Positions 2,927 to 39,014 of a stretch of 64,000 nucleotides of DNA are shown in pieces. A model generated the notes under the pieces. It saw nothing but the letters and a program-made list of their open reading frames with translations, was not told the DNA's origin and ran no database searches. A program made the translations under genes and the position numbers. The stretch spans positions 486-64,485 of the forward strand of contig JAJYJH010000011.1 in the NCBI GenBank assembly GCA_021789695.1, read 5' to 3'. The stretch's first letter is position 1, and the number at the start of each line of letters is the position of its first letter. The stretch is from a bacterium. Its GTDB lineage: Bacteria > Elusimicrobiota > Elusimicrobia > Elusimicrobiales > UBA9959.

Positions 2927-2936
2927 AGTCCTTCCC

Positions 2937-4046
2937 CTAATCGAAGTCTATCTCGTACAGGTACGGCACGTGTTTTTTCTCCAGCGTAACGAAGATCTTT
3001 TTTCCGCCGGCCGCTGCGAAGCCGGGCTGCTCCCTGCCGCCGTAACAGTAATCCTCCTTTGCGCAGGCCAGCAGCCTGGACGGGCCGCTCCAGGGACCCC
3101 ACGGGTAAGGCGCCAGACGGGCCGTGAGCGAACCTGTTCCGCGGTCAGAATACACGGCCAGATAGGCGCCGAGGGCCTGGTTATACGAAACGGAAAACTC
3201 CTCAGGCATATCCGGGATCACGTCGGAGGCCTCGGACACGTCCGAAGTCCACGGCACGCTGCCGGCGTCGGCGCTGTAGTAGGAATAATCCGCGCGCGAA
3301 GCCAGCTTGTCCGGCCTGACGCGGGCCAGCTGGGCGGGGTACTCTCCGGGCGAGGTCTCCTCCCGGCCGTAGACGTAGAGCCAGCCGTCCTCGTCGAAAA
3401 ACGCCGCGGAGCCGAAGGCGGGCTCGATGTCGTTCCAGAAGGCGTAGCCGTCCCCAAATGGCGCCTTGACGTAGGGACCGGCGGGACGCTCGGAACAGGC
3501 CACCCCCTGCCCGACACGGAAGTAATCATAAGGATCCGGACCGAAGTTGTTCATTATGGAATAGAACGCGCAGCAACGGCCGCCGGAGCAGAACCCGGAA
3601 CTGGGCCAGAATTTGCGCGCCTGGCTGTATTCCTTAAGGTCCCCGGAAAGCAGCGGCAGCGGCCAGCCGTTCTCGTCGGAGACGAAGGCAAGGCGCCCGG
3701 CCTGGGAATACGGCGAAGTGCTGGGGGCCAGCGCTGCCGCCCCGTCTATTATACCCCAGACCTCCGGCTGACCGTCGGGTCTTTTCCTGCCTGTCCAGAC
3801 GTTGTTGAGCAGCCAGAGGGTGCGCCCGTCCGGCAGCGGGATGGAGAAATTCCCGCCCTGCGCCACCGGCGCCGTAGTGGAGGCCGGGGACGAGAGCAGG
3901 GCGGTCCCGGAAGAAACGGAGAACGCCGGCAGGGCAGGGTCCTGCGCGCGGACCGCGGCCGGCAGCAGCAGACAGGCCAGCAGGAAGGACAGACGGCCTC
4001 CGGGCCGGCCGCCAAGTTCCAGCGTTGCATTCTTATGGGACCGCAT
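2937..4046 (-). CDS. Secreted hypothetical protein (possibly a glycoside-hydrolase-like beta-propeller, DUF4185-like)
   Basis: Signal-peptide-like N-terminus (RLSFLLACLLLPAAVRAQD). The composition is coding-like, unlike the opposite-strand ORF. ATG at 4044-4046 is preferred over the track's TTG at 4073. The family assignment is only an impression. Confidence 0.6.
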   Translation of the reverse strand: MRSHKNATLELGGRPGGRLSFLLACLLLPAAVRAQDPALPAFSVSSGTALLSSPASTTAPVAQGGNFSIPLPDGRTLWLLNNVWTGRKRPDGQPEVWGIIDGAAALAPSTSPYSQAGRLAFVSDENGWPLPLLSGDLKEYSQARKFWPSSGFCSGGRCCAFYSIMNNFGPDPYDYFRVGQGVACSERPAGPYVKAPFGDGYAFWNDIEPAFGSAAFFDEDGWLYVYGREETSPGEYPAQLARVRPDKLASRADYSYYSADAGSVPWTSDVSEASDVIPDMPEEFSVSYNQALGAYLAVYSDRGTGSLTARLAPYPWGPWSGPSRLLACAKEDYCYGGREQPGFAAAGGKKIFVTLEKKHVPYLYEIDFD

Positions 4047-4059
4047 TATGGCATCTCCG

Positions 4060-4087
4060 CTGACTGGATTCAAAATTATAATATAAT
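4060..4087 (+). promoter_or_regulatory. Candidate sigma70-type promoter for the FN3 surface-protein gene
   Basis: CTGACT (4060-4065), a 16-nt spacer, then TATAAT (4082-4087), inside an AT-rich divergent intergenic region. This is a sequence match only. Confidence 0.3.
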
Positions 4088-4172
4088 AGAAACCATGATG
4101 CGCGCAAACGCGCTGCCCCCCTGTAACATATTAGTCATTAAGGTTGGAAGGCGCTCTGCTAGACTATTACCG

Positions 4173-7100
4173 ATGCTCCCGCGGCGACGAACCATCTTCA
4201 CGCTAATAACTGCGGCGCTGCTGCTGGCCTGCGGCGCCATGCCTTCTCAGGCCGCGCTCTCCCCTTACACTTCCGCCTCTGGACTGAGTTCTCTTTCGTT
4301 CATTTGGGGCGCCGCAGGCTCACCATACGTGGTGGCGCTTTCGACCGACCCGCTGTTCCTGGTGCAGACCGCCACCGGGGCCCTCTCCGCCAACACCACC
4401 TCCTATACCGGCCTCAGCCAGGACACGCTCTACTATTTCCGCGTCAAAAGCCAGTCGGCCCCGGACTCGGCCTACGAAACGGCCTCCACCGCCACCTGGG
4501 TGGCCGCTCCTGCCGGCCTGTACTCAGTGCCGTCCTATTTCACTTCGGATTCGTCCTTCACGGCCACGGCGCGGCTGGGCTGGGATACCGGCGGGAATCC
4601 GGTGTGGACGGCCTACGAGATGCAGTACGCCTTAAATTCGTCCTTTTCCCCCTCTGCCACGGCCATGCCCGGTTACCCGCCCGCCACCCTTGGCGGACTG
4701 AACGCCAACACCACCTACTATTTCAAGGTACGGGCGGTGGGCGTCTCGGGAGTGGTCACGCCGTACGCTCCGTACATCTCCACCGCCACCATGGCCCTGG
4801 CTCTTCCAGGGGTCTCGGAGAAGGTGCACGAGACCAGCGCCACCATCTCCTGGACCCCGGTCTACGACGCGACGGTACAGGCCCTCACCTCGGAAGGCTA
4901 CAAGGTCCTACTGCAGAGCGATCCCACCCTTACCTCCCCGTCCGTCTGGGTCACGGCTTCGCCGACGGCTTCTTCAGCCGACTTCACCGGACTCGCCCGC
5001 AACACCGGGTACTGGTACAAGGCCGGAGCCCTGAACTGGACCGGCGCGCCGAACATGTCGGATATCCGCTATTTCGTCACCCTCGCGGCTGTACCGCAGG
5101 GGCTCGCCAGATCTTCGGTAACAGCCGGCGCGGCCAGCCTGACCTGGACTCCGCTCGGGCCCGGGGAGACGTACGGTTACAGGCTCGAGGCCTCCGCGGA
5201 CCCCGCCTGGTCTTACGGCGCCATTCAGTCGTCTTCCGCTTACGACGCGTCGGTTAGCACCCTTACAATAGACACGCTGGACTCTAATACCACCTACTAT
5301 TTCCGGGCCGCCTCGTTGAACACCGCCGGCGCTCCCGACTATACCGCCAGCCTTTCCTCCGTCACGCTGGCCCTGGCGATCCCGGGGGATGTCGCCTGGT
5401 CCAATGCCCAGCCCCAGGCGATAACGGTGGAGTTCATTCCGCTGCCGCAGACGCTGCAGTCGCTCTCGTGCGAAGGCTACCGCTTGGAAGCCTCAACGGC
5501 TCCGTTCGGTTCCGGCGGCGCAGTGATCTCCTCCGCCACCTACGACGTCTACCCGACCGGGTTCACGCGCCAACTGACGGCGCAAGGCCTGGCTCCCAAT
5601 AACACGTACTATCTGCGCCTCGGCACCCTCAACTGGCAATATACCCCGGACTATACCGTGCTGCCCTCCACCCATACAGGCTTCCCCGGAAACCTGACCA
5701 ACGTCACGCTGGACGCGGTCTGGAGTTCCAGCGCCTCCGTCAGCTTCACCCCGGGCATAGCGGCAGAAGGCCACGTGGCCGAGGCCTCCGCCTCGCCTTA
5801 CTTCGATACGATATACGCCAGTTCCTACACTCCGAGCGGCACGGCCTCCAACCTGATAGTAAGCGGCCTGGACCCCAACACCACCTATTATTTCAGGGCC
5901 GGGGCGCTCTACAACGGAGCCACGGTCTACACGAACACCGTGCCCGACTACCGTCAGACCCTGCCGCAGCCGCTTACCGCCCTGTCGTTCGCCGGTGTTT
6001 ACCAGTCCAGCGTAACCGTCTCCTGGGCGCCCTTGGCCGGCACCTCGCAGATCTCCTCGGCTGAATCCTACATACTTCAGGGCGCTGTTTCCCCGGCCTT
6101 CTCCCCGGTGCTGTTCTCCTCCTCCACCGCAGACATCTCGCGCGACAGGCTTACGATAAGCGGCCTCTCTCCGGACACCAGCTATTATTTCAGGGCGGGC
6201 ACGGTCAACATGGAAGGTTCCGTCAATTACTCCCTCACCCCGGACACCTCTACGATGGCCAACCAGCCCGCCGCGCAATCCTATACAGCCATAACCCCGG
6301 ATTCGCTCACGCTGACCTGGGGGTCCCACGGCAACCCGGCCGATACCAGGTACATGGTGGAGATGTCCTCCTACCCGGACTACAGCTACGCCAGGCCGGC
6401 GCAGACCGTGGCGCTGACCACAGCCGCCTTCTCCGGCCTGTTGCCGAACACGACCTACTATTCGCGCGCGACGGCCATAAACAGGCTGGGACGCGCTACG
6501 CCGGCGCTGGACTTCTCCCCTATGGCCACCGGGGCCTTCGACCCCGGAGTGTTGCCGTTCTCCGGCGTAGGGGTCTCGAGCCTGACGGTCAACTGGTCCT
6601 CCGGGGCGGCCGCGGGCTTCTTCAACAATCCGGGCACCTTCTACCTGGTGTCCATCTCCTCAGAACAGGCCTTCTCCGGCACCGTCCTCTCCTCCACGAC
6701 GCTCGGTCTCTCCGCCACCTTCTACGGCCTGCTCTCCGACACAAGCTACTACCTGCACGTATCGGCGCTTAACCTGACCGGAGTGCCAACGGACCCGCCG
6801 GCGCAGCTCGGCACCGCGCTGACCCTGCCCGCTACTGCGTACCTGTTGCCGCCCGACGCCACCTTCCCGCCCGCCCAGATGATGATAGACGGTTTCACGG
6901 CGGCCTGGGGCCCTAACGGCAACTCCCCGGACACGCGCTATTACGTGGAGGCCTCTACTGTGAACGCGGGCGCAGGCCCTGACTTCAGCGTTATAGCCTC
7001 CTCCTGCCTGGCGCAGGGGCTCGCCTGCACCCTGACCGGTCTGCAGATAGACACGCAGTACTGGCTGCGCGTGCAGGCCATCGGGCAGACCGGCGCGCTG

Positions 7101-7844
7101 GCGGATTTCGTGCAGCTTGGCTCCACCAGGACGCTACTCTCAGCCACGGGCAGCGCGCCCGCCCTGCAGGATACAGTGGTCACGCTCGACGCCTCCTACG
7201 GCCAAATCTCCGTGCATATCCCTCCCGGGGCCCTTGGCGGGGCCACAAGGCTGACGCTCTCCCCGTCCACCACCACGCTGGCCGGACCGGCCTCCGCGGT
7301 GTCGGCCCTAACGCCTACCGGCATAGGCGTCACCATCAACTACTTCCCTCCCGCCCTCGTACTGGGGGCCATAACTATAACCGTACCGTACCGTCTCTCC
7401 GACCTGCCCGCCAATATAGACCCGGCGCGGCTGGTGCTCGCTTTCTACGACGAGACTGACCGGGTCTGGGTGCCGCTGCCCTCGGTTTCCAACGTGCCGG
7501 CGCGCCTGGTGACGGCCCAGACCTGGCACCTCTCCACCTTTCAGCTGATGCAGACCAATCCGACGGCGGGGCTGTCGGGGGTCAAGGTCTACCCGAACCC
7601 ATACCGCCCCAACTCCGTAACCGGCGTGATGCACTTCGCGGACCTGCCGCCCTACTCCGAGGTCAAGATTTACACTTTCCTGGGGGAGCTTGTAAGGAAG
7701 CTGAAGGCCGATATCGACGGTATGGCGCAATGGGACGGGCTCAACAGGGACGGGCGCGAGGCCGCCAGCGGAGTGTACATAGCCTACGTACAAAGCCCCG
7801 ACAAAAAGAGCAGCAGGAGCCTGAAGGTGGCCGTGGAAAGATGA
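4173..7844 (+). CDS. Large cell-surface protein: signal peptide, about 10 fibronectin type III repeats, an Ig-like region, and a T9SS-type (Por secretion tail / FlgD-Ig-like) C-terminal domain
   Basis: An in-frame ATG at 4173 gives MLPRRRTIFTLITAALLLACGAMPSQA, a signal peptide. A GL.(P/S)(N/D)T.YYFR motif recurs 10 times at intervals of about 85-100 aa. The last 87 aa (7581-7841), VKVYPNPYRPNS...GVYIAYVQS...LKVAVER, look like a T9SS CTD. Confidence 0.85.
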   Translation: MLPRRRTIFTLITAALLLACGAMPSQAALSPYTSASGLSSLSFIWGAAGSPYVVALSTDPLFLVQTATGALSANTTSYTGLSQDTLYYFRVKSQSAPDSAYETASTATWVAAPAGLYSVPSYFTSDSSFTATARLGWDTGGNPVWTAYEMQYALNSSFSPSATAMPGYPPATLGGLNANTTYYFKVRAVGVSGVVTPYAPYISTATMALALPGVSEKVHETSATISWTPVYDATVQALTSEGYKVLLQSDPTLTSPSVWVTASPTASSADFTGLARNTGYWYKAGALNWTGAPNMSDIRYFVTLAAVPQGLARSSVTAGAASLTWTPLGPGETYGYRLEASADPAWSYGAIQSSSAYDASVSTLTIDTLDSNTTYYFRAASLNTAGAPDYTASLSSVTLALAIPGDVAWSNAQPQAITVEFIPLPQTLQSLSCEGYRLEASTAPFGSGGAVISSATYDVYPTGFTRQLTAQGLAPNNTYYLRLGTLNWQYTPDYTVLPSTHTGFPGNLTNVTLDAVWSSSASVSFTPGIAAEGHVAEASASPYFDTIYASSYTPSGTASNLIVSGLDPNTTYYFRAGALYNGATVYTNTVPDYRQTLPQPLTALSFAGVYQSSVTVSWAPLAGTSQISSAESYILQGAVSPAFSPVLFSSSTADISRDRLTISGLSPDTSYYFRAGTVNMEGSVNYSLTPDTSTMANQPAAQSYTAITPDSLTLTWGSHGNPADTRYMVEMSSYPDYSYARPAQTVALTTAAFSGLLPNTTYYSRATAINRLGRATPALDFSPMATGAFDPGVLPFSGVGVSSLTVNWSSGAAAGFFNNPGTFYLVSISSEQAFSGTVLSSTTLGLSATFYGLLSDTSYYLHVSALNLTGVPTDPPAQLGTALTLPATAYLLPPDATFPPAQMMIDGFTAAWGPNGNSPDTRYYVEASTVNAGAGPDFSVIASSCLAQGLACTLTGLQIDTQYWLRVQAIGQTGALADFVQLGSTRTLLSATGSAPALQDTVVTLDASYGQISVHIPPGALGGATRLTLSPSTTTLAGPASAVSALTPTGIGVTINYFPPALVLGAITITVPYRLSDLPANIDPARLVLAFYDETDRVWVPLPSVSNVPARLVTAQTWHLSTFQLMQTNPTAGLSGVKVYPNPYRPNSVTGVMHFADLPPYSEVKIYTFLGELVRKLKADIDGMAQWDGLNRDGREAASGVYIAYVQSPDKKSSRSLKVAVER

Positions 7845-7860
7845 GGATGGCGCGGACTTT

Positions 7861-8844
7861 ATGAGGAAAGCGGCGTTGAAATGCCTGAGAAACGCGGCAG
7901 GAGCGGCACTGTTGCTCTGCGCCCCGACCCTGGTTCTTTCTGCGTCGGCCGCCGGTTACGATTCCTCTTCCGTCGGTACGGCCGCCGCCCAGTTCCTGAA
8001 GATAGCCATGGGCGCGCGCGGCGCAGCCATGGGAGAGGCCTACGCCGCCCTCGCCGACGACGCCTTCGCGCTGGACTGGAACCCCGCCGGCCTGATCCAT
8101 GTAAAAAAGAACTCCATGGCCATGATGCACTCCCCCTACCTGGCCGGTTCCTACGCGGATTATCTGGCCTACGCCGAGAACGCGGGCGAGGTCGGGTCCT
8201 GGGGAGTAGCTTTGAAATACATGAACTACGGCAAGATCACGCAGACCGACGCCAGCGGCGTGGACTTGGGAAGTTTCTCCCCTTCCGACACCGAGATCAG
8301 CGTGGGCTTCGCCTGTTACATAACGGGCTTCAACGAGGAGCCAGAGGACCGTTTCGTATTGGGCGCCACCGGCAAGTTCGTCAAATCCAAGATAATTTCC
8401 GGCGACAACACGGTCTCCGCCGACATAGGGCTAAACCTGCCGTACATGTTCGACAACAACTTCCGCGTCAGCCTGGTGGCCCAGAACATCATGGGCACGC
8501 TGCGCTACGACAAGGAGGATTCTCCGCTGCCGCTGATACTACGCCTGGGCACGCTCACGAAGCTGGGGAACTACTTCAACCTCACCGGCGACATAGTGGC
8601 GCCCAGCGATTCGCTGCCCTTCCTGGCGATGGGAGGAGAGCTCAGCGTGCCGGTGAACCGCGATATAGACGCGGCGCTGCGCGCGGGTTTTAACACGCGT
8701 GCCATAACCGACCTGGGCGGGACCCGCAACGTCTCAATGGGCGGCGGCCTGCGCTATACCGATTACAGGCTGGACTACTCCTTCTCCCCGTTCGGGGACC
8801 TTGGCTCCGTCCACCGCATCTCGGCCACTATCGTTTTCGAATAA
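7861..8844 (+). CDS. PorV/PorQ-family outer-membrane beta-barrel protein
   Basis: Signal peptide, then GTAAAQFLKIAMGARGAAMGEAYAALADDAFALDWNPAGL, which matches my recollection of the PorV/PorQ family N-terminal signature. The remainder has alternating beta-strand character and ends in an aromatic-rich C-terminus (ISATIVFE). Confidence 0.7.
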   Translation: MRKAALKCLRNAAGAALLLCAPTLVLSASAAGYDSSSVGTAAAQFLKIAMGARGAAMGEAYAALADDAFALDWNPAGLIHVKKNSMAMMHSPYLAGSYADYLAYAENAGEVGSWGVALKYMNYGKITQTDASGVDLGSFSPSDTEISVGFACYITGFNEEPEDRFVLGATGKFVKSKIISGDNTVSADIGLNLPYMFDNNFRVSLVAQNIMGTLRYDKEDSPLPLILRLGTLTKLGNYFNLTGDIVAPSDSLPFLAMGGELSVPVNRDIDAALRAGFNTRAITDLGGTRNVSMGGGLRYTDYRLDYSFSPFGDLGSVHRISATIVFE

Positions 8845-11817: not shown

Positions 11818-12323
11818 TTATATGTAATCGGGCCTAGCGCCGCAAAGGGCCACCGGCGGCCCGCCTTTTTTGCCGCGCGCCGCGCGCAGTTCCAGCGCGG
11901 CCAGGGGCTCCTTTCCCGGCACCGCCACGGCGAAGATGAACGGACGGTAAAGCACCGCGAGCAGTCCCGCCCACATCCCGGCCCGCTCCCCGAAGGCGCG
12001 CTCGCCTAACTTCATAGCCAGCACGCAGGTCAGCGAACCGGCCAGGACCTGCAGCCAGAGCGCCCAGGCGGCATGATGCCCGAAGAAGCCTGTAAAAAAC
12101 CCCCGGAAGAGTAGGGATAGGGCGGCGACTGAGAAAAGGCTGTGGAACGGACCAGCCCGCCGCGGGCTATCTCCATGGCCCACCCGTCGTAGGACCAGGC
12201 ATCGGAATTAAGCGCGCCCAGGTAGGGCAGGCGCAGCCACTGCGGCAGGAACGCCGCCAGGAAGACCAGCGGCCCGCGCGCGCGGAAATCGCGGTTCTTT
12301 TTTATTTCGTGGACAGGAACCAC
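11818..12323 (-). pseudogene. Remnant of an ArnT/PMT-type (GT39/GT83-like) membrane glycosyltransferase, frameshifted and truncated
   Basis: Two overlapping ORFs in different frames (12323-12030 and 12183-11818) together read like the first ~190 aa of a PMT_2/ArnT protein (LRLPYLGALNSDAWSYDGWAMEIARGG, then FGHHAAWALWLQVLAGSLTCVLAMKLGERAFGERAGMWAGLLAVLYRPF). The reading frame then stops, whereas intact family members are about 500 aa. Confidence 0.5.
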
Positions 12324-12345: not shown

Positions 12346-14988
12346 TCAGCCAGCGATCCGTTTGTCTATCACCCGTCGTATCTTGCCGGTGCGCTGCACA
12401 CGCTCTATGGAATTGGGAGCGAGCACCTCTATCTCCGGCTTCTCCAGCCATTTCAGCCGCACGCTCTCGTGCAGGTCTTCGCAGTGCTTCACCAACTCGC
12501 GCCAGAGCAGGTCGCCCAGCTCCCCGGCGCGGGCCAGCGCGGCCTGATCGGCCGTCTCAGCGCGTATGACCAGCGTGTCCCGGTGGCCTTTTTTGCCTAT
12601 GACCACTTGGAAATTGAAGGTCAGGTCAGGCACCTTGCCCAGCGCCTCCTGGATATCGTTGACAAAGAGGTGCGCGCCGCCGACGTGGATGCGGTCGTCG
12701 CAGCGGCCGAGGATCTCTAAAAGCGGCTCCTTGCGGCCGCAGGCGCACGGCTTGTTTATCCAGCGCCCGAGGTCGCCTACGCGGTAGCGGATGATAGGCA
12801 TCAACTTCTTAGAAAGCCCGGTCACGACCAGTTCGCCTATCTCGCCCTTCTTGACCGGCTCCAGCGTGTCCTGGTTCACGAACTCTACGTACTGGCTCAT
12901 CGCGAACAGGTGGTGCTGGCCCTTAACGCAGTGCGGGCACTGGAAGCCCACCACGCCGGCGTCGGCGGTGGCGTAGGCGGCCGAGCGCACCTTCGCGCCG
13001 GGGAAAACGCCTTCAAAGAAGCGCACCATCTCGGTCCCGACGTACTCGCCGCCGTAGAAGATAGTGCGCAGCGGTATCCTGTACTTCCCTTTACCGGCCT
13101 TCACGAACTCGGCCAGCTTCACAAGGAACGATGGCAGGCCGACCACGGCCGTCGTCTGGAAGTCCTGCAGGTAACCGGCGATGTTCTCCACCGGCAGGTT
13201 GCTGCCTACCGGCACCGAGATGGCCTTGGTATAGGAAATGGCTTTTTCTACGGACAGCCAGCTGGACCAGAGGTTGCCGGCCACGAACAGGTTGGCTATA
13301 ACGTCCTTCTCGCCCAGGCCGCAGGCCTCCATGGAGTATGCGAGCATCCGGCAGGTATGGTCGTACTCCTTCTGATCGTAGAAGACGTACTTCGGCTGGC
13401 CGGTGGAGCCGCCGCTGGCGAAGAAGATACCGCGCTGCACCGGGCCGGTCAGCAGGTCCGGGCTGTCAGGCGGGGTGTTCTCCAGCACATGGTGCTTCTC
13501 AAGGAACGGCACGTGCTGGAAGTCCTCCAGCGAAACTATACGGGGCACGTCCTTGAAGTGCCGCTTGTAGAACGGGCTCCTGGAGCGGGCGTAGTCCACC
13601 AGCTCGCTCAGGCGGTCGAGTTGAGAGGGCTTCTCCTCTATGGGCACCCAGTTCACCAGGGACATCATCGGGAAGATGCCGTCGTGCGGCGAGCCGTTGG
13701 CCTCCTCCAGCATCCTGCCCAGCCGCACCACGCGGGCTATGCCGGCGGGCCCGAGCGTTTCCAGCACCTTCCTGCGCTCTATCGAACCGCCTACGCCTAC
13801 GGTCTGGATATAGCCGCGCAGCGGCAGCAGCTGGTCGCGCACCTGTTCCAGAGTCTCTACCGTCTTGACGTAGAGCACGCGGTTCAGGGGTGAGACCCTG
13901 TACGCCGGGTCTTTCTCGTATATGACGGTCCAGGCGGTGGAAGGGGCAGAGCTGGCGTACGACGCGTTCCCCAGGGCCTGGTCCACCCGGGCCAGCTCCC
14001 TGGCCCGGGTTATCTCCACCTGCTCGTCGGGCGAAAGCCGGCCGGGCGGCAACTCCACGGCTAGCCGGGCGAACTCTTTCTTCGCGCGGCCGAGAAAAGA
14101 AGCGGCCAGCTCCGCGTGGCGCTTCGCCGGCGCGACGAAGTAAAGCGTGTGCAGCGAGGAGCAGGCGGCCTGGTCCCACAGCGAGGCGTCCAGCGCCGCG
14201 CGCGCCGCCACATTGTCCATGCCTTCGTGGTCCACGCAGCTTTCGAAGACCACTCCCACGCTGGTCTTCGGGCCGAAACCCTCTACGCGCACGTCTATGG
14301 GCGCGGCCTGCCGGTAGGCCTGCACGGCGTCGTAGCCGCCCCAGACGAACACGGCGTTGACGTACTTCAGCGCGGCCTCCTCGAGCCCTTGGCTGCCGCC
14401 CTTCCAGGAGAGTACGGCCGCTGAACCGGCCAGCAGGCCTTTCGCGTCGGCCTCCTTCAGCGCCTCCATGAACAGGTTGATGAAGTTGGAACCGGAGGAG
14501 GACAGCTTTACGACGTTGACGTTCTTGGTCAGAAAGCCTATGACCATGGAGTCGAGGATGCCGAGGAAGACGTTGCCGGCACCCACGTGCAGCACTACGC
14601 CCTTCGGCATCGCGCGCAAGAGCCCCTCGTAGCCGCGCCTCTCCACGGAGGTCTCCAGCGCGTAAGGCAGGAAGAGTTCCATATTCAGGCGCTTGCTCAA
14701 CGCCTGCCTGTCGAGCAGCTCCGGGATGACCTCGAGGGTGCGGTCTATGACCTCGGGGGAGAAGGAGATCTGTCCCTTCAGGGCCGAGAGGGCGGCCTTG
14801 CGGTACTTCGCGCCTTTTTCGAACAGCTTGCCGGCCCGGGCCAGGGTGTCCACGATGTATTCCCGCGGGGTCCCGCGCAACGGCCCGCAGGCCGCCTGCG
14901 CCCTACGTCCTATCTCCTCTATCTCTGCCGGGGTCCAGGAGGACCTGTCGAGCGCTTCTCCGAAAAGGTAGGTGTTGTGTATCTTCAT
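12346..14988 (-). CDS. Fusion protein: LuxC-like acyl-CoA/acyl-protein reductase (N-terminal half) plus a PaaK/F390-synthetase-like adenylate-forming enzyme (C-terminal half)
   Basis: The N-half carries LHVGAGNVFLGILDSMVIG and WDQAACSS (Cys codon 14161-14163), as in the LuxC/aldehyde-dehydrogenase fold. The C-half carries FFASGGSTGQPKYVFY, an adenylation P-loop, and has PaaK-like length. I place the start at ATG 14986-14988, which forms an ATGA overlap with the upstream stop. The track start at 15015 is a TTG. Confidence 0.75.
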   Translation of the reverse strand: MKIHNTYLFGEALDRSSWTPAEIEEIGRRAQAACGPLRGTPREYIVDTLARAGKLFEKGAKYRKAALSALKGQISFSPEVIDRTLEVIPELLDRQALSKRLNMELFLPYALETSVERRGYEGLLRAMPKGVVLHVGAGNVFLGILDSMVIGFLTKNVNVVKLSSSGSNFINLFMEALKEADAKGLLAGSAAVLSWKGGSQGLEEAALKYVNAVFVWGGYDAVQAYRQAAPIDVRVEGFGPKTSVGVVFESCVDHEGMDNVAARAALDASLWDQAACSSLHTLYFVAPAKRHAELAASFLGRAKKEFARLAVELPPGRLSPDEQVEITRARELARVDQALGNASYASSAPSTAWTVIYEKDPAYRVSPLNRVLYVKTVETLEQVRDQLLPLRGYIQTVGVGGSIERRKVLETLGPAGIARVVRLGRMLEEANGSPHDGIFPMMSLVNWVPIEEKPSQLDRLSELVDYARSRSPFYKRHFKDVPRIVSLEDFQHVPFLEKHHVLENTPPDSPDLLTGPVQRGIFFASGGSTGQPKYVFYDQKEYDHTCRMLAYSMEACGLGEKDVIANLFVAGNLWSSWLSVEKAISYTKAISVPVGSNLPVENIAGYLQDFQTTAVVGLPSFLVKLAEFVKAGKGKYRIPLRTIFYGGEYVGTEMVRFFEGVFPGAKVRSAAYATADAGVVGFQCPHCVKGQHHLFAMSQYVEFVNQDTLEPVKKGEIGELVVTGLSKKLMPIIRYRVGDLGRWINKPCACGRKEPLLEILGRCDDRIHVGGAHLFVNDIQEALGKVPDLTFNFQVVIGKKGHRDTLVIRAETADQAALARAGELGDLLWRELVKHCEDLHESVRLKWLEKPEIEVLAPNSIERVQRTGKIRRVIDKRIAG

Positions 14989-16199
14989 AGCATCGTCGAG
15001 GCCGAGATGGCGCAACCCTTTAGCTTCTTCACTCCGGCCCGGCCTTTTATCTCCAGCACAGGCCCTGGCAGGCCGCAGGAGCAGCGCGCCCGTACCAGCC
15101 CGAAGTCCGAAGACAGGACCGACAGCGAGGGGTAACTGGTCAGGTACGGCGTTAGGAACTGCAGCAGGCCCGGCTTTCCGTAACCAAGCGGCTCGAGAGT
15201 GCCCGGATCCCGCGCTATCACGCGCCCGTAGTTAGGAATATGGAAGTTCCCCAACCGGCAGTCCACATAAGGCACTCCGTGCTCCACCATACCGAACAGG
15301 TCCCGCACGTTGGCGACCGGGACGCCGAGACTGTCGGCGAGTATTCCGCGGTAGACCTTCTTGTCCACCGCCTCGTCGGAGAGCGTCTTCCAGCCCCCGC
15401 CGGTCACCACGCTGCTGCCCGGGTTCAGACGCGGGTAACGCCCGTAGCGTTTCTTAAACTCCTCCGTCAGCTTTAGCGCGAAGGCGGGGAAGCCCACCAG
15501 CCTGACCAGACTCCCCGCCTCTTCGGACTTCTTCAGCGCCAGCACCGCGCCGTCGATGTCGAAGTAGAAGTCGTTCTTCTCCCGGCTCCAGCGGAAGGTG
15601 TAGAAGATCTCCCCCTTCTTCGTGAAGCCGGTCAGCAGCTTGTCGGTCCAGGCGGTGCCCAGGTCCCTGGCCACCGCGGGGTCGTAAGTGAAGCAGATGT
15701 AGTCGTGGGCCCGCTGCAGGTCCGTCAGGCCCAGGCCCTCGAAGACCTTCCAAGCCATCCGGCGCACGCGCAACAGCGAGCCCCTGTCCAGTTGTATACG
15801 GCTGCGCTGGCCGGAGGTGCCGCTCGACTTGAGTTCCAGCATTATCCGGGAGGCAGGCAGCGTGTACAGGTCACGCTCCTTCAGCGCGGCGACGAAGATG
15901 AACGGAACGCGGGCCACATCGGCCTCCGCCCTGACCGAGGCCGGCGAAAAACTTTCGGTCCCGTAGAGGGCTTTGAGCACCGGCGCGCGCCGGCCCTGGA
16001 AGTCCAGCGCGGCGCGCATCGCGGCCAGGAAGGCCCGCGAGGTGCGGGGAGAGTATTCGAAAGCGGGCGTCTCGAAGAGCGCGTCCAGCGCGGCGCGGCT
16101 CCCGAGCGGTTTGTAGAAAGGCGGGAGGCGGTCCTCCACTGACAGGTCTGCCACAGGTTGTCTCCTTATGACCAGATGAACGGGGGTCCCGGGCCTCAC
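14985..16199 (-). CDS. LuxE-like acyl-protein synthetase (adenylate-forming)
   Basis: The 404-aa product has an LKSSGTSGQRSRI P-loop and LuxE-like length and layout. The GTG start overlaps the upstream GNAT stop (GTGA at 16196-16199). Confidence 0.7.
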   Translation of the reverse strand: MRPGTPVHLVIRRQPVADLSVEDRLPPFYKPLGSRAALDALFETPAFEYSPRTSRAFLAAMRAALDFQGRRAPVLKALYGTESFSPASVRAEADVARVPFIFVAALKERDLYTLPASRIMLELKSSGTSGQRSRIQLDRGSLLRVRRMAWKVFEGLGLTDLQRAHDYICFTYDPAVARDLGTAWTDKLLTGFTKKGEIFYTFRWSREKNDFYFDIDGAVLALKKSEEAGSLVRLVGFPAFALKLTEEFKKRYGRYPRLNPGSSVVTGGGWKTLSDEAVDKKVYRGILADSLGVPVANVRDLFGMVEHGVPYVDCRLGNFHIPNYGRVIARDPGTLEPLGYGKPGLLQFLTPYLTSYPSLSVLSSDFGLVRARCSCGLPGPVLEIKGRAGVKKLKGCAISASTML

Positions 16200-17413
16200 T
16201 GGGACCGGGGTCCCTCCTGTTTGGCTTCCGTTTGGAAGACCGACTCAATGTAGTTCTCGCGCCAGAGCTTCAGGTATTCGTTAAGGAAATTCTTGTAGAG
16301 CGAGATGATCTTGACGTTGCGGAAGTCCAGCATGTCGAACGTGCGCGAGAACACCACGCAATCGTAGCGCGCCTCCCCCATGCGCTTGGCGCAGGGAAAA
16401 TAAGCGCTCGGAATGTAGCGGGCGTCCAGCGCCTCGCGCTGCAGCTCCGGGGAATAGGCCTCTATGACGACCTCGACGTAGGCCATATTCATGTCGCTGA
16501 CCTTTCGCGCCACGCTCTCCAGCACGACGGCGAAGCTCTTTTCGTTAGTCACGCCCCCGATTATCGCGCTATAGCGGTCCTTGAGGCTGACCGTCAGGTA
16601 GACCTCGGTGCCCTGGTCCGGGGTGATCAGGATCAGGTTGGGCTCATGGAACGGCATCACGATGTGCTCGAAGAAACTGTTGTGTTTCGTCCGCATGTAG
16701 CGGGCCTTGACGAACTCAGGGGCGTCTATCACTTCGAAGTTTAGCAGCGGGATCTTCTTACGGTGGTCGCTATAAGGCCCATTCGCGTCCCTGACCTGCG
16801 GGTCCTCCAATTTAATCTGGCGCCTGACTATTTCGTAGAAGGGGACTATCTCCGGTATGATGACCGGCGTGGCGCGCCGCTGCTGCATGGCGCGCTCGGT
16901 GAAATAGGCGGTCAGGCAGTGCGTCTCGTTGTCCTGCACTTTGTGGGTGTTGGGAAAGATACCGAGCTTAACGAAACCCAGACTCTCGGTCAGCTTCTGC
17001 GGGGCGTAATTGGCGGTGCGAGTGGTGGCGTAGACCAGGTCCACCAGGTTCTTGCCCGACGTGATGTCGTCCAGCACCAGCTTCATCATCGTCTGGGCCA
17101 GGTCCATTTTGCGGAACTCCTGGCTGACCACGGCGCCGAAAGCCTTGGAATTGCGGTACTGCAGGTCCACCTCGTACACCAGGCTACCGACGATGCGTTC
17201 AGCGCACTCCGCGACCATCCAGTAGTAGTCGTCGTCCTCTATCGCGCGGCGCATCTTCTCCCTGTCCATGATTATGGAGATGGGATAGGCCGCGCCGTAG
17301 ACCTCGGCGTAAAGCATCTGTATGCGCCGCATGTCCTGTGTCCTGGCAAGCCGGATGATGACGTCCGGCTTGCCCTCGGTCCTTATCACGTGCTCTATCT
17401 TGTTGTGAGTCAT
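16196..17413 (-). CDS. GNAT-family N-acyltransferase with an additional C-terminal domain of about 230 aa
   Basis: The N-terminal ~170 aa have a GNAT-like layout (IRLARTQDMRRIQMLYAEVYG ... GAVVSQEFRKMDLAQTMM ... ESLGFVKLGIF). The C-terminal half is unassigned and may be a second GNAT-like fold. Confidence 0.65.
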   Translation of the reverse strand: MTHNKIEHVIRTEGKPDVIIRLARTQDMRRIQMLYAEVYGAAYPISIIMDREKMRRAIEDDDYYWMVAECAERIVGSLVYEVDLQYRNSKAFGAVVSQEFRKMDLAQTMMKLVLDDITSGKNLVDLVYATTRTANYAPQKLTESLGFVKLGIFPNTHKVQDNETHCLTAYFTERAMQQRRATPVIIPEIVPFYEIVRRQIKLEDPQVRDANGPYSDHRKKIPLLNFEVIDAPEFVKARYMRTKHNSFFEHIVMPFHEPNLILITPDQGTEVYLTVSLKDRYSAIIGGVTNEKSFAVVLESVARKVSDMNMAYVEVVIEAYSPELQREALDARYIPSAYFPCAKRMGEARYDCVVFSRTFDMLDFRNVKIISLYKNFLNEYLKLWRENYIESVFQTEAKQEGPRSQ

Positions 17414-17509
17414 ACCTCTAAAATCCTTAATCTCCGGGACGGCCCCTCGCTATAATATAGTAAAATTGGACGGGCGTTGGTAATGACCCATGTCAGACTG
17501 GGATACCAG

Positions 17510-18358
17510 ATGAGAAAGAACAGAACGCTGTTGCTGCTGCTCCTGCTGCCGGCCCTCTCCGGCTGCGCCTCCTTCAACTCCGGCGACCTGGCGGTGAACA
17601 GGCGCGAGGCCAGGGAGATGGCTTCCGACAAGGGAATAACGCCGTTCGCGAAGCTGGAGGTCTCCTGGAAGAACTTCCCCTATCGTTCGATGGAGGACTA
17701 CATCGGCGAGGGCTCTATCTCCAATCCCAAGCGGATAGTTCCGGTGCCGGTATCGCCGGAAGACGGGGACGCTTTCGCCGAAAAGGCGAGGGAGATCTTC
17801 AAAAGATCAGGACTTTACGACAGGGAGCGCGGCCGCGGCACGCTGCGGCTGGAACTGACCAGCTTCGGCCGCTGGACCTACAGCGAGCTTTTCCGCTCCT
17901 TCCTGGTGGACACCGGGTTTATCTTCATACTCCCCGCCTCGCTGCGCGTAAATTATTATCTGGCCGCCGAATTCGAGGTGCCGGGCGGCCCGATGCGGGT
18001 AGCCGAGGAGGCGCACAACAAGACTACCTTCCACCTGCTGCTGGCCCCCCTGTACCCTTTCTTCTCCCCCGGGGCCAGGGAAAGCTCGCTTTTAAAGAAA
18101 ATGCTGCTGCGCTCTGCGGCGGATGTGTACGAGAAGCTCAAGGCGGCCGGGGTTCCAGCGGAGAAACTCCCGCCGGAACCCAAGGAACGGGGGAATCCGC
18201 CCCCGGCCGTTCCCGAACCGCCGATGCAGCCAGACAGGACCTGGATACCGGGAACGACCTCGAACGAGGCCCCCGCCGGGGATACGGGGCAGATCAGCCC
18301 AGACCAGCCCGACCGGAGCTGGGCCGTGCCGGCGAACGGGGCGCAGCCCTCCCGGTGA
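17510..18358 (+). CDS. Lipoprotein of unknown function with a Pro-rich C-terminal tail
   Basis: ATG at 17510 gives MRKNRTLLLLLLLPALSGC, a lipobox. The tail contains a QPDRTW / QPDRSW repeat. Confidence 0.65.
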   Translation: MRKNRTLLLLLLLPALSGCASFNSGDLAVNRREAREMASDKGITPFAKLEVSWKNFPYRSMEDYIGEGSISNPKRIVPVPVSPEDGDAFAEKAREIFKRSGLYDRERGRGTLRLELTSFGRWTYSELFRSFLVDTGFIFILPASLRVNYYLAAEFEVPGGPMRVAEEAHNKTTFHLLLAPLYPFFSPGARESSLLKKMLLRSAADVYEKLKAAGVPAEKLPPEPKERGNPPPAVPEPPMQPDRTWIPGTTSNEAPAGDTGQISPDQPDRSWAVPANGAQPSR

Positions 18359-23419: not shown

Positions 23420-25333
<1,914 letters not shown>

Positions 25334-25347
25334 CTCCGGAGCTTACC

Positions 25348-26115
25348 ATGAAACAGAACAAGCAATTCAACGTCACCGTAAGGGTCTGGAGACAGGCCGG
25401 ACCGGGGGAACCAGGCAAGATGGTCTCCTACAAGGTCGGGGACATCTCACCGGACATGTCCTTTCTGGAGATGCTGGACGTCCTGAACGACGACCTCCTG
25501 AAAAAAGGGGAGGAGCCGATAGCGGTGGAGAGCGACTGCCGCGAGGGCATCTGCGGCTGCTGCGGCCTCGTAATCAACGGGGACGTGCACGGCCCGGACG
25601 AGCACTCCACCGTCTGCCAGCTCCATATGCGCAGGTTTAAGGACGGCGACGTAATAACCGTGGAGCCTTGGCGCTCAAAGTCCTTTCCGGCGATAAAGGA
25701 CCTTGTGGTGGACCGTTCCGCCTTGGACAGGATCATGCAGGCCGGAGGCTTCGTCTCCGTCAACGCCGGCGCGGCGCCTGACGCGAACTCCGTGCCGGTG
25801 GACAGGGACAGGGCGGAGGCGGCCATGGACGCCGCGGCCTGCATAGGCTGCGGGGCCTGCGTGGCGGCCTGCCCGAACGGGGCCGCGATGCTCTTCACCG
25901 GAGCCAAGATCTCGCAGCTGGCGCTGCTGCCGCAGGGAGCGCCGGAGCGCGCGGCGCGCGCGCTGAACATGGTGGAAGCCATGGACAGGGAAGGCTTCGG
26001 CAACTGCACGAACGAGTACGAGTGCGAGGCGGTCTGCCCGAAGGAGATAAAAGTCTCCAACATCGCCCGCATGAACCGCGAGTTCCTGCTGGCGAACCTG
26101 TTCTCTAAGAGGTAG
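25348..26115 (+). CDS. sdhB: Succinate dehydrogenase / fumarate reductase iron-sulfur subunit
   Basis: Cys clusters [22 protein letters not shown] and CEAVCP, typical of the 2Fe-2S/4Fe-4S/3Fe-4S subunit. Confidence 0.9.
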
Positions 26116-26300
26116 AAGTCACAAGCGCCCGTCAGTCCCGGCTGGCGCCACTAGGGGACTTTTCCAAAAACGCGCGGGGACCTGAACATATCGGGCCGTC
26201 CACCCGCGCCGTGGGCCCGCTCGGCTTTCGCCCGCCGCGCCGTCCGTACTGCACGCATCACAGCGTCATCCTCCCGGGAACAGGACGAAGGAAATCAGCT

Positions 26301-27917
26301 ATGGCGGAATTCAAATATACGGAAATATTCCAGCTGGAGGAGAGCAAGGCGGAGTTCAGGCTGTTCTCCAGGGAAGGGGTGGCGGTCTCCCGGGACGGCG
26401 GGCGGGAGATCCTGGAAGTGACCCCGGAGGCGCTGACCGCGCTGGCGCGCGAGGCGATGCGCGACGTCTCATTCCTGCTGCGCCGCGCCCACAACAAGCA
26501 GGTGGCCGCCATCTTTCCGGACCCGGCGGCCTCGGACAACGACAGATTCGTGGCCTGGTGCATGCTGGAGAACGCGGCCATCTCGGCTGACTTCGAGCTG
26601 CCCTTCTGCCAGGACACCGGCACCGCGACGATAGTGGCCAAGAAAGGCGAGCAAGTCTGGACCCGCTCCGACGACGCCGAGGCGCTCTCGCGCGGGGTCT
26701 GGCAGACCTACACCGGCGAGAATCTGCGCTACTCGCAGAACCTGCCGCTGGACCTGTACCGCGAAAGGAATTCCGGCGACAACCTGCCGGCGCAAATAGA
26801 CATCTACGCCAGGCCCGGCATGACGTACGAGTTCCTCTTCGTGGCCAAGGGCGGCGGCTGCGCCAACAAGACCTTCTTCTACCAGGAGACCCGCGCGCTG
26901 CTCGCGCCGGCGACGCTCAAGCCGTTCCTGATCGAGAAGATGAAGACCCTCGGCACCGCCGCCTGCCCGCCGTACCATATCGCCTTCGTTATAGGCGGCA
27001 CCTCGGCCGAGATGTGCCTGAAGACCGTAAAGCTGGCCAGCACCGGCTATCTGGACGGTCTGCCGGACAGCCCCGGAAACGACGGACGCGCGTTCCGGGA
27101 CAAGGCCATGGAGGCGGAGTTGCTGGAGGCCTCGCGGCACGTCGGTTTCGGCGCGCAGTTTGGCGGCAAGTACTTCGCGCACGACGTGCGCGTCGTGCGC
27201 CTGCCCCGCCACGGCGCCTCGCTGCCAATAGGCTTAGGCGTCTCCTGCTCGGCCGACCGCAATATCCTGGCCCGCATAGACCGCGACGGCCTCTGGCTGG
27301 AGGAGCTCGACCATAAACCGGGGGACCTGATACCGAAGGAGATACGCGCGAAGTATTCCTCCTGCGCCAGCTGCGAGAGCGTGGACCTGAACAGGCCGAT
27401 GCAGGAGATAACCGCGCAGCTCTCTAAATACCCGGTCGGAACGCGCCTGTCGCTAAACGGCCGCATCGTAGTCGCGCGCGATATCGCGCACGCAAAGTTC
27501 AAGGAGCTGCTGGACGCCGGCAAGCCGCTGCCGGACTATCTGCTGAGACACCCGGTCTACTACGCCGGGCCGGCCAAGACCCCAAAGGGTAAGGCTTCCG
27601 GCTCGTTCGGCCCGACCACGGCCGGCCGTATGGACTCCTACGTGGACCTGCTGCAGGCCAAAGGCGCGTCGCTGGTTATGATAGCCAAGGGGAACCGCTC
27701 GCAGGCAGTTACCGACGCCTGCGGGAAGCATGGCGGCTTCTACCTCGGCTCCCCCGGCGGCCCGGCCGCCCTGCTGGGTCAGCGCCACATAAAAAAGGTG
27801 GAGCAGCTGGACTACCCGGAACTGGGCATGGAAGCCGTCTGGGGAGTCGACGTGGAAGATTTCCCGGTCTTCGTGCTGGTGGACGACAAGGGCGGGGACT
27901 TTTTCCGGCGCTCCTGA
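26301..27917 (+). CDS. fumA: Class I (Fe-S dependent) fumarate hydratase, fused alpha/beta type
   Basis: ATG at 26301 follows an RBS. The CQDTGTA motif is present, and the 538-aa length matches the FumA/FumB/TtdAB-fused layout. Confidence 0.85.
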
Positions 27918-38031: not shown

Positions 38032-38816
38032 AAGCGCGCGCGCTGACCATAGCCGGCTCGGACCCGGGCGGCGGGGCGGGCATACAGGCGGACCTAAAGA
38101 CCTTCGCGGCCTTCGGCGTGTACGGGCTGTCCGCCGTCACCTCGGTGACGGTTCAGGACACGCTGGGCTTCCGCGGCGCCCTGGCGGTTCCGCCGCCGGT
38201 GGTGGCCGGGCAGATAGAGGCCGCGCTCTCCGACATCGGCGCCGACGCGGTGAAGACCGGCATGCTGGGCTCGGCGGCGGTGATAAAGGCCGCCGCCTCC
38301 GGCTTGAGGAAGAGGCGGGCAGGCAGGCTTGTGGTGGACCCGGTGCTGTGCGCCAAGAACGGCAGTCCGCTGCTGGAGCCGCGGGCCATAAACGCGCTGA
38401 TAAGGGAGTTGCTCCCGCTGGCGCTAGTAGTGACGCCTAACGCTCCGGAAGCGGAACGCCTTGCCGGGGTGGAGGTGAAGAACGCCTCCGGCGCGAGGAG
38501 GGCGGCGCGCGCAATCCGCGCCCTGGGGCCGGCTTTCGTGCTGGTAAAGGGCGGGCACCTGGATGGCACCGGCTGCGAGGACCTGCTCTTCGACGGCAGG
38601 TCCTTCGCCGCGCTGCGCTCTCCGCGCGCGGACACGCGCCACACCCACGGCACCGGCTGCACGCTGTCGGCCGCGATAGCCGCGGGGCTGGCCCTCGGAC
38701 TGGACGTCCCGGCGGCTGTGCGCCGCGCCAAGCGTTACGTCACAGGCGCTATCAGGAACGCCCCCTGCCTGGGAAAGGGCGCGGGGCCGCTGGAGCATTT
38801 CTGGGAGGGAAGATGA
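38028..38816 (+). CDS. thiD: Hydroxymethylpyrimidine / phosphomethylpyrimidine kinase
   Basis: GTG at 38028 overlaps the thiC stop (GTGA) and gives [25 protein letters not shown], a canonical ThiD N-terminus. [14 protein letters not shown] is also present. Confidence 0.88.
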
Positions 38817-39013
38817 GGATAAAGCTGAACGGCAGGGATGCCGAGATAAAGGACGGGAGCACCGTGGCCGCGTTGCTGCGCGGTATGAAGACGGACCCGA
38901 AAAGTTCTCTGGTGGAGCTCAATATGAAGGTGCTGCGCCCAGCCGGCTGGAAGGAGACCGCGCTGCAGGACGGCGACGCTGTGGAAGTGTTCTCTTTCGT
39001 CACCGGGGGCTGA
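38813..39013 (+). CDS. thiS: Thiamine biosynthesis sulfur-carrier protein
   Basis: 66 aa ending in GG. ATGA overlap with the thiD stop. Located upstream of thiG. Confidence 0.85.
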   Translation: MRIKLNGRDAEIKDGSTVAALLRGMKTDPKSSLVELNMKVLRPAGWKETALQDGDAVEVFSFVTGG

Positions 39014-39014
39014 G

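Follow-up and report, generated by a model that had tools for sequence, protein, structure and literature searches.

The DNA considered here is a 64,000-nucleotide stretch (hereafter, the window) of a bacterial genome of the order Elusimicrobiales (lineage UBA9959; assembly GCA_021789695.1, contig JAJYJH010000011.1, positions 486 to 64,485), which carries, on its minus strand between positions 12346 and 17413, three consecutive open reading frames (ORFs) of 405, 404, and 880/889 amino acids (aa). The products are a protein with a GNAT domain followed by a second, putatively GNAT-like domain, an acyl-protein synthetase of the LuxE type, and a fusion of a LuxC-type reductase with a PaaK-like adenylate-forming domain. 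This cassette is a widespread and uncharacterised variant of the LuxCE acid-reductase system, which is not peculiar to the genome of the window, and the combination of the three genes represents a sharply delimited and strongly conserved non-luminous version of that system. Judging from the sequences, its four intact catalytic units are inherited, exchanged, and sometimes fused as a single unit.

16196-17413, minus strand: gene 1, tandem-GNAT protein, 405 aa (ORF, Pfam, and AlphaFold 2 model)
14985-16154, minus strand: gene 2, LuxE-type acyl-protein synthetase, 389 aa from the probable GTG start at 16154 (longest ORF from 16199; PF04443)
12346-14988, minus strand: gene 3, LuxC::PaaK-like fusion, 880 aa (Pfam; its ATG overlaps the LuxE stop)

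A preliminary description of the locus, made from the letters and the translated reading frames, had assigned these genes to the LuxC, LuxE, PaaK-like, and GNAT families, and hidden Markov model searches (Pfam and NCBIfam) confirmed all four assignments. The motifs on which it had relied were all located, that is, SSGTSGQ at 15807-15827, WDQAACSS with its cysteine codon at 14161-14163, and SGGSTGQPK at 13390-13416. It had also described a module with no luciferase, and the scan of the 43 larger ORFs of the window recovered no luciferase or LuxD family; no luxA, luxB, or luxD adjoins the three genes in the related loci either.

Catalytic units of the three proteins

The LuxE enzymes adenylate an acid and then form a thioester with one of their own residues, and the LuxC reductases take the thioester onto a cysteine and reduce it to an aldehyde with NAD(P)H. 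The PaaK-like ligases also begin with adenylation, followed by the formation of the coenzyme A (CoA) thioester, and the GNATs transfer the acyl group of a thioester to an amine.

The protein encoded by gene 2 scores 125.9 bits against PF04443 (cut-off 24.9; E 2e-36), and its phmmer comparison with the LuxE of P. phosphoreum (7xc6_E) has an E of 2e-20. Three segments carry the features of the family.

15807-15827, minus strand: P-loop SSGTSGQ, aligned with SSGTSGV of 7xc6_E
15384-15401, minus strand: GGGWKT, the equivalent of the catalytic Lys238 by alignment to 7xc6_E
15003-15020, minus strand: KGCAIS, cysteine codon 15012-15014, nine residues before the C-terminus, matching TRxxKGCxLS

The luminous LuxE, as resolved by cryo-electron microscopy, has a Lys238/Arg355 pair, carries the acyl group on Cys364 of its flexible TRxxKGCxLS tail, and lacks the ANL C-terminal subdomain (PMC9157457). 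The GGGWKT and GR motifs of the window LuxE align with the Lys238/Arg355 pair of 7xc6_E, the ANL C-terminal subdomain is absent here as well, and the protein ends in GRAGVKKLKGCAISASTML, in which the cysteine is, by analogy, the predicted self-acylated “swinging” residue. Across 76 related loci, the tail retains GC in every case and KGC in all but one (75/76), and the cysteine is also kept in nearly all of the distant cassettes outside the Elusimicrobia. The LuxE of an Armatimonadota genome (L084, 6841-8004), unlike all of the other LuxE partners, has, as its ORF was read here, no KGC cysteine motif at its C-terminus, which may represent a frameshift, an assembly error, or a real exception.

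The fusion encoded by gene 3 comprises two domains, the first of which matches PF05893 at 230 bits (cut-off 21; E 4e-68).

13648-14862, minus strand: LuxC-type thioester reductase domain, residues 43-447 (PF05893)
12358-13629, minus strand: PaaK-like adenylate-forming domain, residues 454-877 (AMP-binding and AMP-binding_C_2)

The LuxC domain contains the GAGN asparagine (Asn139), the catalytic Cys276, and PHDG at residues 434-437, and the alignment with the luminous LuxC (7xc6_A) matches the GAGN, xDQxAC, and HDG motifs, with Cys276 standing opposite FYDQQACFS. The cysteine of AACSS, on the conservation of which the earlier proposal depended, does not vary within the Elusimicrobia, and its conservation over 28 diverse fusions of the wider family is 90% or more. 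The domain is predicted to reduce an enzyme-bound thioester to the aldehyde with NAD(P)H. The alignment to 7xc6_A stops at LuxC residue 447, short of the segment P460-P488, which in the luminous LuxC forms the roof over a 40-angstrom, L-shaped hydrophobic myristoyl tunnel (PMC9157457). As the PaaK-like domain begins at residue 454, this alignment indicates that the roof/oligomerisation element is replaced in the window fusion by a complete PaaK-like domain.

In this second half, Pfam recognises AMP-binding (residues 525-724) and AMP-binding_C_2 (residues 771-877), and the ANL core is complete, with SGGSTGQPK, YRVGD, GRCDDR, and RTGK with Lys869 representing the P-loop, A7, A8, and the A10 lysine, respectively. 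The best PDB match is a Bacteroides PaaK-like protein (4r1l, E 3e-40), followed by 2y4o and 2y27. The PaaK-family matches act on small or aryl acids, which weighs against a long-chain fatty substrate. The half thus shares its fold, the AMP-binding_C_2 domain, and the core motifs with the PaaK ligases (Burkholderia PaaK1/2 and Bacteroides 4R1L) but, unlike them, is joined to a reductase and lies outside any paa operon, with no paa genes being found near the three genes.

The luminous LuxC-LuxE pair (Photobacterium/Vibrio, 7XC6) and the window proteins therefore belong to the same families, and share the P-loop, the GGGWK lysine, the arginine, and the KGCxxS cysteine of LuxE, together with the catalytic cysteine in its xDQxAC context, the asparagine, and the HDG of LuxC. 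They differ in that the identity is roughly 20-25%, the roof has given way to the PaaK-like domain, no luxA, luxB, or luxD is present, and the module is partnered with a tandem GNAT. The NCBIfam equivalog models point the same way, as the LuxE protein scores 88 bits against NF052244 (long-chain-fatty-acid--protein ligase LuxE; cut-off 550), the LuxC domain scores 112 bits against NF052251 (long-chain-fatty-acyl-CoA reductase LuxC; cut-off 750), and the PaaK-like half scores 150-155 bits against TIGR02155/NF041878 (cut-offs 646-700). All of these scores are far below the cut-offs, and by this measure the LuxC, LuxE, and PaaK portions are not orthologues of the named enzymes.

Pfam coverage of the protein encoded by gene 1 is limited to residues 20-163 (Acetyltransf_4, 27.7 bits against a cut-off of 24.3; Acetyltransf_1, 24.2 against 20.7). 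When AlphaFold 2 (AF2) was run with a shallow alignment, the C-terminal half was poorly modelled (pLDDT 57), and a more diverse alignment was used instead. The resulting model (pLDDT 81.7, pTM 0.80) has domains of GNAT topology at approximately residues 18-178 and 227-358, and a long helix at the C-terminus.

16880-17362, minus strand: N-terminal GNAT domain, residues 18-178 (Foldseek and PDB profile search)
16340-16735, minus strand: C-terminal GNAT-like domain, residues 227-358 (AF2 topology and weak hhalign match)

Foldseek returned a probability of 1.0 between this model and many GNATs, although when ranked by E-value, the matches were all single-domain and all on the N-terminal domain, with SpeG, RimL/RimJ, and the ArsN/phosphinothricin acetyltransferases (PAT) at the top (E ~1e-9). 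The PDB sequence profile search found the phosphinothricin/arsinothricin N-acetyltransferase 5jtf (E 8e-5). Where the Q/RxxGxG/A motif of the CoA loop would be expected, the N-terminal domain has R101-K-M-D-L-A, and the distant orthologues have R-G-x-x-L/V, so that the arginine alone is invariant; the segment GIFPN..KV..ETH is also invariant in the orthologue alignment. The order of the secondary structure elements of the C-terminal domain (beta-alpha-alpha-beta-beta-beta-alpha-beta-alpha-beta-beta) is that of a GNAT, and hhalign gave a weak but topologically equivalent match between the two halves (E 0.015), which together weakly suggest that this domain is also GNAT-like. It has no CoA-loop motif, and H256, D279, E314, D351, and R357 are highly conserved. 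Given this high conservation and its invariant polar residues, the C-terminal domain probably binds a substrate or ligand. The full-length orthologues of the protein are 41% identical in an unassigned metagenome lineage (L081), 34% in Armatimonadota, 31% in Chloroflexota, and 27% in Kitasatospora.

Mycothiol synthase, MshD, is also a tandem-GNAT enzyme, and resembles the gene 1 protein in having two GNAT-fold domains in one chain, with a single recognisable CoA loop. There is no detectable sequence similarity between the two, however, and in the gene 1 protein, unlike MshD, it is the N-terminal domain that is of the CoA type, and the C-terminal domain, which shows strong conservation, is a probable ligand-binding unit.

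Distribution of the cassette

The proteins nearest to those of the window come from metagenome-assembled genomes of the Elusimicrobiota/Elusimicrobiales (50-99% identity), and the 172 close homologues of the fusion are all from the Elusimicrobia. With each GTDB species represented by a single genome, the scan for the cassette yielded 144 relatives, and the counts given here rest on the best 80 of these 144, the titles of which are mostly Elusimicrobia, Elusimicrobiota, Elusimicrobiales, or Elusimicrobiaceae, with a few labelled “bacterium” and no other phylum. When the window proteins were searched against these loci by tblastn, the trio of GNAT, LuxE, and fusion was found in the same order and on the same strand in 73 of the 80, and was complete in all but one of the loci with enough upstream sequence (70/71), an arrangement that is far beyond chance. 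The synteny anticipated in the preliminary description thus extends over about 80 species of Elusimicrobiales, and beyond.

The genes that flank the trio (NHL/TPR, secreted low-complexity, lipoprotein, M29 aminopeptidase, TLC-like transporter, and PorV-like) are syntenic in the closer Elusimicrobiales only, and the most distant genomes of the order retain the trio without them. These neighbours were considered as possible members of the system, and were rejected for this reason. Within the trio itself, additional genes have been inserted between LuxE and the fusion in some loci (L050, L051, L054, and L065) or between the GNAT and LuxE in others (L017, L018, and L027), and insertion was also observed in L048. 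The inserted genes, which include a DUF1007/NicO-like metal-transporter pair, toxin-antitoxin genes, a transposase, an ATPase, and a DNA methyltransferase, are unrelated cargo, and were rejected as a clue to function. Their presence indicates, however, that tight translational coupling, which had been proposed for the three genes, is not obligatory.

In the comparison with the nearest genome (L044; JAJYNO010000029.1) around window positions 12364-17662, the flanking DNA is 88-94% identical, whereas the trio is only 67-83% identical. The breakpoints lie just outside the operon, one shortly 5' of gene 1 and the other shortly beyond the stop of the fusion. The fusion of L044 shares about 70% identity with each of the other copies. 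A drop in identity that is confined to the trio indicates that the three genes were exchanged as a block, with the replacement having occurred, on this sequence evidence, in one of the two lineages, either that of the window genome or that of L044.

The module is not lineage-specific, but is a widespread cassette, which recurs in five or more phyla. Among 1.84 billion protein cluster representatives, an exhaustive HMMER search produced 516 matches at E <1e-30, and of the 150 best matches, approximately 130 correspond to LuxC::PaaK fusions over their full length (about 800-900 aa, 27-38% identity). A word-indexed search with a diverse profile recovered mostly the same Elusimicrobia proteins, and added one Chloroflexota match. 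The same trio is present in one Armatimonadota and one Chloroflexota genome, and the L081 lineage has a 413-aa tandem GNAT, LuxE, the fusion, and a CPBP protease. The trio itself is constant from phylum to phylum, while its neighbours change, and the catalytic cysteine, the asparagine, the HDG, the P-loop, and the A10 lysine are conserved in all of the variants outside the Elusimicrobia that were compared.

In three lineages, the partner position is occupied by a protein of about 500 aa which combines HATPase_c_2 with a GNAT (L085, 1684-3162; L087, 4354-5856; L089, 9631-11124), and which is followed by an MFS_3 exporter in two of the three (L085 and L089). The hhalign comparison of the tandem GNATs of about 400 aa with these partners reached a probability of 30%, and the two types appear to be analogous in position and architecture, with their homology not being proven beyond the GNAT core. 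An exporter of the MFS (MFS_3-type) family lies inside the cassette in three independent lineages. In L085, LuxE, LuxC, and the PaaK-like domain form a single polypeptide of 1276 aa (3159-6989; protein P0304), which supports the earlier suggestion of a fixed stoichiometry, as well as a physical complex.

The tblastn search against plasmids showed that full-length fusions are also carried by cultured bacteria. On a plasmid of Kitasatospora sp. NBC_00070, the order is AMP-binding, MFS, a 378-aa GNAT (27% identical to the gene 1 protein over its full length), an “acyl-protein synthase”, and an 837-aa “acyl-CoA reductase”. Several Streptomyces plasmids have full-length matches to the fusion itself, and in the unannotated record of pSCAT from Streptantibioticus cattleyicolor, homologues of the GNAT and LuxE lie upstream of the fusion. 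A more distant cassette is found on conjugative IncF plasmids of Salmonella enterica (L090/L093; CP053580, CP054717), where a hypothetical gene of 121 aa is followed by LuxE, a fusion of 802 aa, a PaaK-family gene, and a GNAT of 294 aa; this cassette was not found in complete E. coli genomes. The modification of a microcin-type peptide was considered here, in relation to an HlyD/C39-ABC exporter beside one of the Salmonella cassettes, and was dropped, given that the exporter is absent from the second plasmid.

A possible route to an aldehyde and its alternatives

Non-luminous homologues of LuxC and LuxE are common in genomes, and we know of none for which a function has been demonstrated. The full-text literature searches found no paper that characterises the module, and no characterised pathway that is tied to homologous loci. 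On this point, as on family placement, synteny, and the conserved cysteine, nothing was encountered that contradicts the preliminary description. TabE is a stand-alone LuxC-like reductase of tambjamine biosynthesis, and a luxE-homologue mutant of Riemerella is mentioned in the literature, with no biochemistry being assigned to it. A 2025 review of the aldehyde dehydrogenase (ALDH) superfamily represents the LuxC clade by the luminous complex only, and makes no mention of a LuxC fusion (PMC12041015).

The part of the chemistry that can be proposed with most assurance is that LuxE and the LuxC domain probably reduce a carboxylate, other than that of a fatty acid, to an aldehyde by way of two cysteine thioesters. 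A broader proposal, which is tentative and may well prove wrong, is that the single operon formed by the three genes encodes a carrier-protein-free system with four activities, which would activate, couple, and reduce carboxylic acids. The PaaK-like domain would adenylate a small or aryl-type acid, with the formation of the CoA thioester or the passage of the acyl group to a thiol, and the tandem GNAT would then use the thioester to N-acylate an amine that bears a carboxylate, most simply an amino acid. LuxE would adenylate the remaining carboxylate and load its own C-terminal cysteine, the arm of which would swing into the LuxC domain and deliver the acyl group to Cys276, for reduction with NAD(P)H to the aldehyde. 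The amide stage and the reduction stage might equally take place in the reverse order. Under this scheme, the product would likely be a small molecule of the N-acylated amino-aldehyde type, which would be secreted by the exporter-bearing variants of other phyla.

A small, diffusible product is preferred to a long-chain lipid because the LuxC roof has been lost, the ligase is of the PaaK type, and exporters occur in the variants; the MFS exporter found inside the cassette in three lineages fits a diffusible product. A lipid product appears less likely, in particular, because the PaaK-like domain stands in the place of the hydrophobic LuxC roof. In structure, the GNAT domain comes closest to enzymes that include small-molecule and amino-acid N-acetyltransferases, such as SpeG and ArsN/PAT.

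A number of observations weigh against the four-activity scheme, however. It names no substrate. The degenerate CoA loop (RKMDLA) suggests that the use of acyl-CoA by the GNAT is not assured, and this enzyme might instead accept its acyl group from the cysteine arm of LuxE. Foldseek does not discriminate between the GNATs that act on amino acids and those that act on proteins, with RimL/RimJ scoring equally well. One Kapabacteria locus has LuxE and the fusion with no adjacent GNAT, and the HATPase_c_2 of the partners of about 500 aa, which is GHKL/anti-sigma-kinase-like, has an unexplained role. In the Elusimicrobia, no exporter is found adjacent to the trio, and the cassette resembles a conserved core set (50-85% identity across the order), which could indicate a housekeeping role.

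A housekeeping role would be consistent with an ordinary fatty-acid reductase, in which LuxE and LuxC make fatty aldehydes for the synthesis of lipids, waxes, alcohols, or ether lipids, with the PaaK-like domain as an alternative entry that forms acyl-CoA, and the GNAT as an N-acyl lipid synthase. The catalytic features of LuxE and LuxC are indeed those of the luminous enzymes, the near-universal and strong conservation in the Elusimicrobiales fits a function in the envelope, and acyl-CoA is also accepted directly by LuxC (PMC9157457). This alternative is nevertheless unlikely, in view of the scores in the long-chain NCBIfam families (112 against 750 for LuxC, and 88 against 550 for LuxE) and the absence of the C-terminal roof of the 40-angstrom hydrophobic tunnel. 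In addition, the PaaK family are not fatty-acid ligases, several variants include MFS exporters, and LuxD, thioesterase, acyl carrier protein (ACP), or lipid genes are adjacent to the cassette in none of about 90 loci. The sole role discussed previously for non-luminous LuxE/LuxC is that of building side chains for surface glycans, and here the module would produce an unusual acyl group, which the GNAT would then place on an amino sugar. The islands for flagellin glycosylation in Aeromonas group II and the Enterobacteriaceae contain a predicted “fatty-acid synthesis” cassette of ACP, FabG, AMP-ligase, LuxE, and LuxC (PMC7874193; PMC4875605), and the LuxE/LuxC-like RfbN of V. cholerae O1 was proposed to act in a tetronate pathway, according to the account of Morona 1995 given in PMC4772473. 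These cassettes resemble that of the window in the pairing of non-luminous LuxE/LuxC with a separate AMP-dependent ligase, and their function is likewise only predicted. The flagellin islands, however, have an ACP and a ketoreductase, and are set among sugar and glycosyltransferase genes, whereas the cassette of the window lacks an ACP, has its ligase joined to LuxC, includes a tandem GNAT, and is not surrounded by glycan genes. As neither the neighbourhood in the window nor the sampled loci have an ACP, a 3-oxoacyl-ACP reductase (FabG), a glycosyltransferase, or a nucleotide-sugar or other sugar gene beside the trio, the polysaccharide cluster of the window is more than 24 kb away, and the neighbours change between phyla while the trio stays, a role in glycan decoration is rather improbable.

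The conservation of the cassette in the Elusimicrobiales, which is similar to that of a core gene, would also fit primary metabolism, in which the GNAT would protect the alpha-amine of an amino acid similar to glutamate or aspartate, and LuxE/LuxC would take the place of the kinase and phosphate-reductase pair, by a logic like that of ArgB/ArgC, to yield an N-acyl semialdehyde. The fungal alpha-aminoadipate reductase is a precedent for the adenylation-dependent reduction of a side chain, and in the sequence-profile search the GNAT matches best with the phosphinothricin/arsinothricin N-acetyltransferases, the substrates of which are glutamate analogues. This resemblance to PAT is weak, however, and by fold is no better than that to the SpeG/Rim enzymes, while the PaaK-like domain would be left without a role, and the exporters, the plasmid copies, and the patchy phyletic distribution are a better fit to secondary metabolism, which makes a role of the module in semialdehyde synthesis quite improbable. 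Even less can be said for an oxidative, energy-conserving system, in which LuxC would oxidise an aldehyde to a bound thioester, and the adenylating enzymes would run in reverse (with AMP and PPi, to give the acid and ATP), or acyl-CoA would be formed. The Elusimicrobia are fermenters, and the PaaK-like enzymes of anaerobes pair with aryl-pyruvate oxidoreductases. The LuxC family is also one of the reversible ALDH clades (PMC12041015). A system of this kind would nevertheless leave the GNAT without a role, and is a poor fit to the contexts found in the Streptomycetaceae and those with exporters, so that the oxidative direction is very improbable.

The four-activity scheme shares the logic of adenylation, thioester formation, and NAD(P)H reduction to an aldehyde with the carboxylic acid reductases (CAR, Lys2) that resemble non-ribosomal peptide synthetases (NRPS) in their A-T-R architecture, and with the NRPS-independent pathways to peptide aldehydes. 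Unlike CAR and Lys2, the proteins of the window have neither a phosphopantetheinyl carrier domain nor an R domain of the short-chain dehydrogenase/reductase type; the flexible tail of LuxE would provide the carrier, through its cysteine, and the fold of the reductase is that of the ALDH family. A more ambitious extension, for which the chances are slight, is that the cassette represents a minimal assembly line, with neither an NRPS nor a carrier protein, that is widespread and had gone unrecognised. It would give rise to a new family of N-acyl amino-aldehyde (or derived imine/pyrazine-type) metabolites, the producers of which would span five or more phyla, among them cultured Streptomycetaceae, and Salmonella with IncF plasmids. 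In such an assembly line, the cysteine tail of LuxE would shuttle between the adenylation site, the condensation site of the tandem GNAT, and the ALDH-fold reductase, and the other building block would come from the second adenylating domain, which is part of the fusion.

While these findings overturn no concept, they provide a clean and tractable entry to the question of the non-luminous LuxC/LuxE, the role of which becomes testable in tractable hosts through the plasmid cassettes of Kitasatospora and Salmonella. If the product is a small molecule that bears an aldehyde, the cassette would constitute a new enzymatic route to such compounds, independent of carrier proteins, and a conserved metabolite of a poorly known phylum would have been identified.

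Gene starts, flanking sequence, and the remainder of the window

Two sites upstream of the genes bear on their expression.

17454-17483, minus strand: promoter-like site TTACCA-18-TATATT, about 40 nucleotides 5' of gene 1 (consensus scan; a pattern match only)
16162-16167, minus strand: Shine-Dalgarno sequence AAGGAG, spaced by 7 nucleotides from the GTG at 16154-16152 (read from the sequence)

The junctions between the genes had been described as overlaps of four nucleotides. That between LuxE and the fusion stands, with ATGA being common to the stop and the start at 14985-14988, and the fusion from this ATG has 880 aa, equal to the length of its homologues. At the other junction, the GTGA shared with the GNAT stop is present at 16196-16199, although its GTG is doubtful as the true start of LuxE. 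The homologues of LuxE align only from around residue 16 of the query, and given this and the AAGGAG at 7 nucleotides, translation probably begins at the GTG at 16154, which is 45 nucleotides inside the ORF, and would leave a gap of 41 nucleotides behind the GNAT stop, with no overlap. The promoter-like site is the sole match 5' of the operon in the consensus scan. A riboswitch or leader RNA in this position was considered and rejected, as the Rfam search at the gathering score found no match upstream of the operon in eight related loci, and the matches in the window are at the level of chance.

Divergent from the trio, on the plus strand (17477-18358), is a lipoprotein gene with the lipobox LSGC and no Pfam match, which adjoins the trio in most of the Elusimicrobiales, but not in the most distant genomes. 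On the other side, two short overlapping ORFs on the minus strand (11818-12323) are what remains, with stops in frame, of the N-terminal part of a PMT_2/ArnT-like membrane glycosyltransferase. The distance that separates the fusion gene from the M29 peptidase varies among the relatives, at 2-9 kb.

Elsewhere in the window, the plus strand at 2853-8844 encodes a 1663-aa repeat protein of the Fn3 and purple-acid-phosphatase-N types, followed directly by a PorV-like outer-membrane protein, which hints at a cargo/shuttle pair of type-IX-like secretion in a genome of the Elusimicrobia. Fumarate reductase and fumarase are encoded at 23420-27917, close to RtcB and an ornithine/aspartate carbamoyltransferase, and a compact thiamine cluster of ThiC, ThiD, ThiG, a ThiH-like radical SAM protein, and ThiE is found on the plus strand at 36739-41550. 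The polysaccharide cluster (41570-63875) includes WbqC, a Wzt-type ABC transporter, an O-antigen ligase-like protein of the Wzy_C family, and a chain-length regulator of the GNVR/ParA type, and also contains, on the minus strand at 43386-46433, a 1015-aa protein in which a glutamine-dependent asparagine synthase is joined to a GT4 glycosyltransferase.

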